64,000 nucleotides of DNA from Escherichia phage Pinarejo (PP925831.1); one strand, 5' to 3'. Positions 41,317 to 41,991 are shown, numbered from the stretch's first letter. Translations and numbers: made by a program. Notes: generated by a model not told the origin, from the letters alone.

Positions 41317-41991
41317 TTAATTTATTAGACTTCTTAAACGAGCAGAAGTCATAAATGGAAATTTTTCTAAAGTTGGCTTTCGCCAATATCTTGGATGACA
41401 AGTTGATTTAAAATCAAGAACAATTTTCTTTGCTTCATCAATAGTGTTAACTCCAAAGTTATCTAACATTATTTTCTTTTCTTTTTCCCACCGTTTATTA
41501 GCTAAAGCAGATTGAAGCTTTTTGTTTTTAAATGTGTCATTTTTTCTAGAATGAGTTGTTCCTTGTGTCGGACTCCATCCTCTTCCTAAAATAAATCCCT
41601 CAGGAATTATATCTCCATCATGCAATTTTATACATCTTTTACCATTATTATAATATTTTCGTCCAGTTTGTGTATTTGAAATATTATTTGCATGTTTTCT
41701 TTTTAACCAACCATAAACTTTATTATTTCTCCTAACATATTTAGTTGAAACCGTCATTTTTATGGCTGCATAAGATAATTTTAAAGAATTTGGGTGTATT
41801 TTTACTAATAGCTGATGTGCAACATAATGCTCTTCTGGAGTTAAATCAACCAAGTTAGAAGCATCATTACTACCGCCTAAACATTTCGGAATAATATGAT
41901 GTCTTTCTTTATATCCAGTAAGGGCTCTATTGCGAGCCCTATCAATTAGTGAATTATAAATTTTTTCATAATTCATCGTACATTGCTCCAA
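41317..41991 (-). CDS. Free-standing HNH homing endonuclease-like protein
   Basis: [30 protein letters not shown] (HNH motif); N-terminus [10 protein letters not shown] parallels the HNH at 9883..10515; lies between genes 3 and 2. Confidence 0.8.

Follow-up and report, generated by a model that had tools for sequence, protein, structure and literature searches.

We think that the open reading frame lying between the DNA end protector gene (gene 2) and the tail completion gene (gene 3) of Escherichia phage Pinarejo (PP925831.1) is probably a free-standing HNH homing endonuclease gene of the Mob type, which a minority of T4-like phages carry at the precise end of gene 2, a reading that we base on comparison of sequences. 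Unless they are given for a locus of another phage, positions below are those of the window, that is, the whole stretch of 64,000 nucleotides that was analysed, and the gene lies on its minus strand. The gene is real but was already known and annotated, and the element is of an ordinary kind, selfish and mobile. Free-standing Mob genes are textbook T4 biology, and as a gene this one holds nothing novel, since RB32 and dozens of other phages already have it in their annotation under the name of a mobB-like homing endonuclease. What the present analysis adds is the anatomy of the insert, evidence for its site fidelity and recent spread, a testable prediction of target and immunity, and a predicted translational control element specific to the lineage.

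The protein is 100% identical in amino acid sequence to RB32ORF146c (YP_803088), which occupies the same position between genes 2 and 3 and has an identical CDS of 660 bp, likewise overlapping the stop of gene 2; there is no difference between the two, and they are the same gene. The RefSeq note on RB32ORF146c reads "similar to mobB; not conserved from T4 position", another public note speaks of a "putative site-specific intron-like DNA endonuclease", and annotated copies are also found in RB33, HY03, e11/2, fPS-2, D5505 and other phages. RB32ORF146c is presumably one of the two mob-like HNH genes counted in RB32 by Petrov et al. 2010 (PMC2993671). Literature searches returned no experimental or functional study of the gene 2/3 endonuclease.

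The inserted gene and its protein

A preliminary description, made from the DNA alone, had placed an HNH open reading frame between the tail-completion and end-protector genes, and this is indeed what lies there: an ORF at 41317..41991 (minus strand) of 224 aa when counted from the TTG at 41991, encoding an HNH motif and flanked by gene 2 (41973..42800, minus strand; gp2 has 275 aa here versus 274 aa in T4) and, downstream, by gene 3 (40680..41210, minus strand; tail completion and sheath stabiliser gp3). The coordinates and length that it gave hold for the ORF as listed; the realistic start, however, is likely not this mechanical TTG but the ATG at 41976-41974, fifteen bases downstream, so that the gene becomes a CDS at 41317..41976 (minus strand) of 219 aa plus a TAA stop, as annotated in RB32, D5505, HY03 and the other phages examined. 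The ORF does overlap gene 2 at the 3' end of the latter, over 4 nt when counted from the ATG: the gene 2 stop (TGA, 41975-41973) and the endonuclease start share the ATGA at 41973..41976 (minus strand), an arrangement that suggests translational coupling. A GGAG precedes the ATG at 9 nt, and the GC content of the gene is 29.5% versus 35-37% in its neighbours.

The surroundings are those of T4. The local order 57A-1-3-[ORF]-2-4-53-5 is the T4 order, with gene 4 (42800..43252, minus strand) as part of a T4-type late block and genes 1, 57A and 57B following gene 3. For gene 4 itself, the ORF lister extends to a TTG at 43342 (180 aa), where T4 and RB32 annotate 150 aa, and its product, the head completion protein gp4 (42800-43252, minus strand), matches the Pfam family Tn7_TnsA-like_N, which has an endonuclease fold, at 4.9e-21.

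The preliminary description had given T4 as having no gene at this place and had proposed a comparison with T4, T2 and T6. This was right: in T4, T2, T6 and also RB3 the gene 2/3 junction contains only a 106-bp spacer and no ORF, and the T4 junction aligns with T2, T6, RB3 and RB7 as a single unbroken piece (the T2, T6 and RB3 loci were confirmed). The same spacer is found in the window at 41211..41316 (minus strand), equal to the T4 one, and marks the downstream edge of the insert. When the window, T4, RB32 and Shigella phage CT01 are aligned, the insert amounts to 659 additional bp relative to T4 and runs from the last codons of gene 2 to the stop codon before the unchanged spacer. The end of gp2 is thereby rewritten from ...KVWSNI* (TGG TCA AAT ATC TAA) in T4 to ...KVWSNVR* (TGG AGC AAT GTA CGA TGA), and it is the change of the Ser codon from TCA to AGC that creates the GGAG.

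A megablast search with the segment from gene 3 through gene 2 gave 512 matching phage records, of which 36 (about 7%) carry the endonuclease insert, carriers being the records that cover the whole query and both figures including duplicate RefSeq and GenBank entries; coverage is 78% for CT01 and about 69% for the remaining records listed. The ORF is thus not common to all close relatives including T4, a possibility that the preliminary description had itself raised. The endonuclease gene is present in some genomes and absent from others that are otherwise collinear, which is how a stand-alone Mob gene is recognised among close relatives.

Carriers are not confined to these phages. At least five further genera have full-length orthologues (52-63% identity) in the gene 2/3 junction, as seen in Kosakonia phage Kc304 (Winklervirus), VR25 (Gaprivervirus), Salmonella phage SHP1 (Dhakavirus), Acinetobacter phage Konradin (Lazarusvirus, Twarogvirinae) and Serratia phages SP1 and 4S, and also on several metagenomic contigs. 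The claim of a homing-endonuclease insertion specific to this lineage is therefore supported as to its homing type and falls as to its specificity, the gene being scattered among Tequatroviruses and other genera.

The protein carries an HNH (beta-beta-alpha-metal) catalytic motif at 41812..41913 (minus strand; residues about 22-55), laid out as HH(26-27)...N41...H50...H54; in an alignment of 43 homologues H26 and H27 are at least 90% conserved, and N41, H50 and H54 are invariant, the conserved residues being the catalytic and metal-binding His...Asn...His of the HNH / His-Me finger superfamily. A family profile matched the HNH motif of McrA in the PDB (E=0.0018), and the protein matches PHROG 655, "homing endonuclease", at 1e-58. 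Its scores against the Pfam models HNH (PF01844; 17.8 bits versus a cutoff of 27.5) and HNH_5 (PF14279; 16.5 versus 21.4) are both below threshold, a shortfall that we attribute to the shortness of these models and their poor coverage of the divergent Mob clade, and a search of NCBIfam gave only a sub-threshold match to the IscB HNH. The AF2 model (pLDDT 89.7) has strands at 24-27 and 42-45 followed by a helix at 47-60 around the motif, that is, a predicted beta-beta-alpha fold, and beyond it a small beta region, a linker of low confidence (about 131-155) and four C-terminal helices. With the full model, the best Foldseek matches in the PDB are the HNH domains of Cas8-HNH and McrA, and these are weak (prob 0.92, E=0.3); a further fold search with the whole model gave only helical matches and was uninformative.

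A search among 5.8 billion proteins gave 2939 relatives, of which about 20 match over the full length (52-63% identity); the remaining 2900 or so, like T4 MobB, align only with the N-terminal 110-135 residues. The C-terminal four-helix region (residues 138-219, at 41320..41565, minus strand) is therefore common only to the 20 or so full-length homologues, and those whose context was examined all lie at the gene 2/3 junction. An N-terminal HNH domain followed by a distinct C-terminal region of this sort is the layout of a Mob protein. The C-terminal region is modelled as all-helical (pLDDT 86) and is presumed to be the DNA-binding and specificity domain; compared alone with the PDB it gave no significant fold match (the best were HMG boxes, E>5), and a helix-turn-helix or other known DNA-binding fold for it is consequently unsupported.

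The window holds a second HNH ORF at 9883-10515 (minus strand; 210 aa), which overlaps both of its neighbours, nrdD (10512-12329) and nrdG (9423-9977), and thus sits at the position of mobC in T4; aligned over about 128 N-terminal residues, it and the gene 2/3 endonuclease share 34% identity.

The end of gene 2: linked substitutions, translation and predicted target

We aligned the segment from gene 2 to the end of gene 3 of CT01, of 12 carriers and of 14 non-carriers. Of the 1462 shared bp about 130 are polymorphic, and at only 12 of these do carriers differ from non-carriers by a fixed difference. All 12 fall between 42033 and 41981 (42033-42030, 42026-42024, 41991, 41987-41985 and 41981), with 42036 near-fixed, and the 120 or so other polymorphic sites are common to carriers and non-carriers. 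The resulting block at the 3' end of gene 2 (41981..42036, minus strand), which is absolutely linked to the endonuclease gene and is our predicted target-immunity region, changes gp2 from ...LQQFVS...WSNI* to ...LQSFYS...WSNVR*. Its upstream boundary is sharp, positions 42039 and 42045 being already shuffled between carriers and non-carriers, and on the gene 3 side there is not a single fixed difference. CT01, whose endonuclease copy is decayed (see below), retains the carrier alleles in the block, and among non-carriers the diversity of the final 64 nt of gene 2 is one seventh of that in the remainder of the gene. This pattern is what one would expect if the non-carrier allele were cut near 42040-42020 and repair then always co-converted everything from the cut to the endonuclease gene. 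The element also accounts for a local mosaic boundary in gene 2 in alignments of T4-like therapeutic phages.

Within this region, a stretch of 29 nt of gene 2 at 42020-41992 (minus strand; AAAGGAAAACGTTTCTCTGCAAACAAAG) has no fixed difference and one singleton among 26 Tequatrovirus genomes. It is nearly identical in nucleotides even in other genera, for example at the loci that we call L058 and L084, and such conservation at the DNA level is unusually strong for coding sequence.

The same block may bear on translation. RNA folding predicts a first hairpin in the mRNA at 41985..42039 (minus strand), in which the arm 42039-42028 pairs with 41995-41985 and buries the Shine-Dalgarno (SD) sequence GGAG (41989-41986), both arms being made of linked substitutions, and a second, A/U-rich hairpin of 11 bp at 41950..41975 (minus strand), which includes the U and G of the start codon. 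The fold around the endonuclease start has an energy of -23.1 kcal/mol (z=-2.3); chimeras with T4 arms lose the stem of the first hairpin (-15.3 versus -9.1 and -5.2 kcal/mol).

One may thus ask whether the linked substitutions serve mainly to regulate translation of the endonuclease and not to protect the carrier from it, in which case the cleavage site could be elsewhere; we consider this rather unlikely, while giving it more weight than any other alternative. The loss of the stem in the chimeras speaks for it, as do the facts that the changes create both the SD and a complementary upstream arm (CUCCAAAGC), in a stem that would be melted by the ribosome finishing gene 2, and that 7 of the 12 fixed differences together with the near-fixed 42036 lie in the stem, where all form Watson-Crick pairs in the carrier allele (the pair 42033/41991, for instance, goes from G-C in T4 to A-U in the carrier). 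The SD has a probability of being unpaired of 0.01, a value reached by just 1% of upstream shuffles, Konradin has an analogous CUUCCAGA/UUUGGAAG stem, and there is a precedent in the RNA hairpin that sequesters the ribosome-binding site (RBS) of mobE (Gibb & Edgell 2009, as cited in PMC2993671). On the other hand, the fixed changes at 42026-42024 fall in the loop of the hairpin, and SD sequestration is not significant in the other 11 carrier lineages (10 of 11 if the borderline L084 is set apart), most of which lack a good SD. A hairpin sequestering the SD as a feature of the family is accordingly rejected, only the window lineage being significant across the genera tested. The endonuclease start, by contrast with this lineage-specific hairpin, is placed between -4 and +2 nt relative to the gp2 stop in 12 of 12 carrier lineages (as ATGA, TGATG, TAATG or TTGA), so that the conserved feature would be termination-reinitiation coupling, and the hairpin, as modelled, a lineage-specific addition resembling the published one of mobE.

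A further point against regulation as the main role is that differences cluster in the QQF[VM] codons of gene 2 even in lineages free of the hairpin. IMG/VR supplied three close relatives only, too few for a test of association, and we therefore used GenBank phage records and a metagenome scan, which provided an independent check on 80 further gp2 loci, all of them classified. At the protein level, gp2 has QQF[VM] in nearly all non-carriers (the exceptions being L007 with QSFQ, L108 with QAFQ and a few distant ones) and QSFY, QSFQ, QNFQ or QAFH in 7 of 12 carrier lineages, the other 5 keeping the QQF motif. For matched pairs of a carrier and a non-carrier we then counted differences in the same 33 nt (from -60 to -28 relative to the conserved Trp codon; one-sided Fisher test), a test window that was defined from the Tequatrovirus pair of discovery, window/T4, in which the enrichment is strong (p=6.5e-11). 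The 33 nt are enriched in differences in VR25/L107 (p=1.8e-6), L057/L094 (p=5.5e-5), SHP1/L096 (p=1.7e-4) and L059/L008 (p=0.01), the first two pairs being hairpin-free, and not in L084/L096 (p=0.92; one of the five matched comparisons, two of which use the same non-carrier genome, L096). The target prediction is therefore not universal, given the 5 carrier lineages that keep QQF and the L084/L096 pair without enrichment. Among the exceptions, L007 is an IMG/VR contig whose gp2 ends at 3322 and which has QSFQ, no endonuclease gene and an enlarged gap of 193 nt from gene 2 to gene 3; possibly this lineage has lost the endonuclease gene yet kept an immune allele.

Immunity and regulation are not mutually exclusive, and both readings of the block can hold. 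Combining them, we tentatively propose, with somewhat less than even confidence, that an old and site-faithful Mob lineage targets one and the same part of gp2, its most conserved one (codons for MPLQQF[VM]SK), across several genera of the Straboviridae, that carriers have repeatedly gained immunity substitutions, several of them turning QQF[VM] into QSF[QY], and that Tequatroviruses have in addition built from these substitutions a hairpin that sequesters the SD. If this is true, one short block serves host coding, nuclease immunity and translational control of the endonuclease together, and the case may illustrate how an invader rewrites the end of an essential host gene for its own RBS, regulation and immunity.

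As for transcription, a pattern search finds the T4-type late promoter box TATAAATA at 43281..43288 (minus strand), upstream of gene 4, as the sole minus-strand copy between 43288 and 40268; none lies within or just upstream of the endonuclease ORF, sigma-70-like matches in the region are no commoner than in shuffled sequence, and no minus-strand terminator-like site was found inside the insert. With this sole late promoter upstream of gene 4, genes 4, 2, endonuclease and 3 would form one late transcription unit, and transcription of gene 3 must then pass through the endonuclease gene.

The scenario that we favour, a mobile Mob-type endonuclease, would then run as follows. The gene would be transcribed late within the 4-2-3 message and translated at a low level, via the ATGA, by ribosomes terminating on gene 2, its SD being otherwise buried in the hairpin in the window lineage. 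In a mixed infection the protein would nick or cut the endonuclease-free allele, the predicted site falling in the conserved part of gene 2 that encodes MPLQQFVSK, some 45-60 bp upstream from where the gene is inserted, and recombinational repair from the carrier genome would copy the endonuclease gene together with the linked end of gene 2. The carrier's own substitutions would confer immunity to cleavage. One would then expect inheritance to be super-Mendelian and the gene 2/3 markers of the other phage to be excluded locally; marker exclusion in mixed infections, also put forward in the preliminary description, is suggested by analogy with the T4 Seg/Mob literature (PMC2988022). In practical terms, the case offers a Mob enzyme whose predicted target is testable and sharply confined to about the last 60 bp of gene 2.

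Site fidelity, spread and decay

Nucleotide diversity among the 12 Tequatrovirus carriers is 0.0066 in the endonuclease gene versus 0.0195 in gene 2 and 0.0306 in gene 3, so that within the same genomes the diversity of the gene is lower than that of the flanks by a factor of 3-5, which indicates recent lateral spread. This supports the recent horizontal transfer put forward in the preliminary description, the contrast with the flanks being what spread by homing would produce. The SNPs among carriers (12 synonymous and 8 nonsynonymous, 3 of the latter in decayed copies) show that the gene evolves under purifying selection.

Four copies are altered, and three of them (CT01, FL23 and Manna) are decayed. 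That of CT01 has an internal deletion of 486 bp which leaves a 57-aa ORF, that of FL23 a 1-bp deletion whose frameshift leaves 64 aa, and that of CE1 lacks one codon; in Salmonella phage Manna (L078, 301-1596) the stop has been lost by a 1-bp deletion and nearby changes. The Manna record annotates a 431-aa ORF from the endonuclease start via the spacer into gene 3, which may be a real fusion or a sequencing error. In the CT01 remnant (L003, 2638-2811) the ATGA overlap is preserved, along with the last 44 codons and every carrier-linked substitution of gene 2, and the remnant would make a natural "immune but endonuclease-dead" allele for use in crosses, for which carrier, non-carrier and decayed alleles all exist in nature. 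Low diversity, linked flanking markers and degenerate copies together make up the population signature of a Mob gene.

The wide occurrence at one site might be read differently, namely as that of a useful phage gene which is no longer mobile and has been retained at the junction since before the genera diverged, with a role that could be that of a weapon against co-infecting relatives or another one in DNA processing. We find this improbable. It is true that orthologues sit at the junction in many genera with a divergence resembling that of the flanking proteins (relative to the window, 52-63% identity for the endonuclease, 59-72% for gp2, 62-69% for gp4 and 44-50% for gp3), that the gene is under purifying selection and that transcription of gene 3 has to run through it. 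However, only about 7% of Tequatrovirus records carry it and it is missing from most of the sampled genomes of other genera, phages with frameshifted or deleted copies are viable, and the diversity among carriers, far under that of the flanks, points to recent lateral spread and not to vertical retention.

In T4, I-TevIII is an inactive relic. That the window copy might be of the same kind, passively carried and no longer cutting DNA, is equally improbable: decay does occur in the family (CT01, FL23, Manna), but the window ORF has kept its full length and shows 100% identity to the majority allele, every residue of its catalytic motif is intact, the ratio of synonymous to nonsynonymous SNPs indicates constraint, and its low diversity compared with the flanks implies recent spread.

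Further ORFs, endonuclease-like or extra, were seen in this part of the genome. In Konradin (L082, 18-668), endonuclease genes flank gene 2 on both sides, and such ORFs lie upstream of gene 2 or gene 4 in the Aeromonas phage 25-like L009 and L010 (about 1337-1672) and in other distant T4-like phages (L016, about 1611-1940; L057, 2069-2758). Endonuclease-like genes thus seem to land repeatedly in the gene 53-4-2-3 block.

Relation to known phage endonucleases

T4 MobB, whose name the gene bears in several records, is also free-standing and is 45% identical over window residues 1-114, the N-terminal HNH domain, while the C-terminal halves have no detectable similarity. It also differs in genomic site, since mobB lies in the alpha-gt/alpha-gt.2 region (Table 1 of PMC2988022). 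Orthology with mobB is therefore rejected, the gene being at the gene 2/gene 3 position and matching only in the HNH domain, over 52% of the query. The catalytic domain is Mob-like without the gene being a mobB orthologue, and the "mobB" label in records such as that of CAM-21 reflects a resemblance at the level of the domain.

I-HmuI of Bacillus phage SPO1, an HNH nicking enzyme of solved structure, provides a general model for phage HNH homing enzymes, in which, as described in PMC2988022, the HNH domain is at the N-terminus and is joined by an extended linker to DNA-binding helices at the C-terminus. I-HmuI is intron-encoded, whereas the gene 2/3 endonuclease is free-standing, and it was not matched in the PDB sequence-profile search nor in the fold searches.

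SegF and SegG offer a comparison in behaviour: according to PMC2988022, both carry out intronless homing with co-conversion in T4 x T2 crosses, the carrier allele being protected by sequence differences and cleavage being distant from the insertion. Like the present gene, they are free-standing and next to a conserved gene, and their co-converted markers match the linked 56-bp block described here. They differ by a GIY-YIG catalytic domain and the making of double-strand breaks; here the domain is HNH and a nick is the probable product.

A further parallel is with MobE and MobA of T4, which share the architecture of an HNH domain plus a distinct C-terminal region and from which the same behaviour may be expected by analogy. 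Both nick their targets and are over-inherited (PMC2988022), the nick being made in a conserved neighbouring gene of endonuclease-free phages and followed by over-inheritance, as described in PMC2988022 and PMC2790892. Their targets are nrdB (MobE) and gene 39 (MobA), whereas the target predicted here is gene 2. In mobE a hairpin in the RNA sequesters the RBS (Gibb & Edgell 2009, as given in PMC2993671), as we predict for the window lineage, with the difference that here the arms of the hairpin would lie inside the coding sequence of the upstream host gene and the endonuclease start is coupled to the gene 2 stop.
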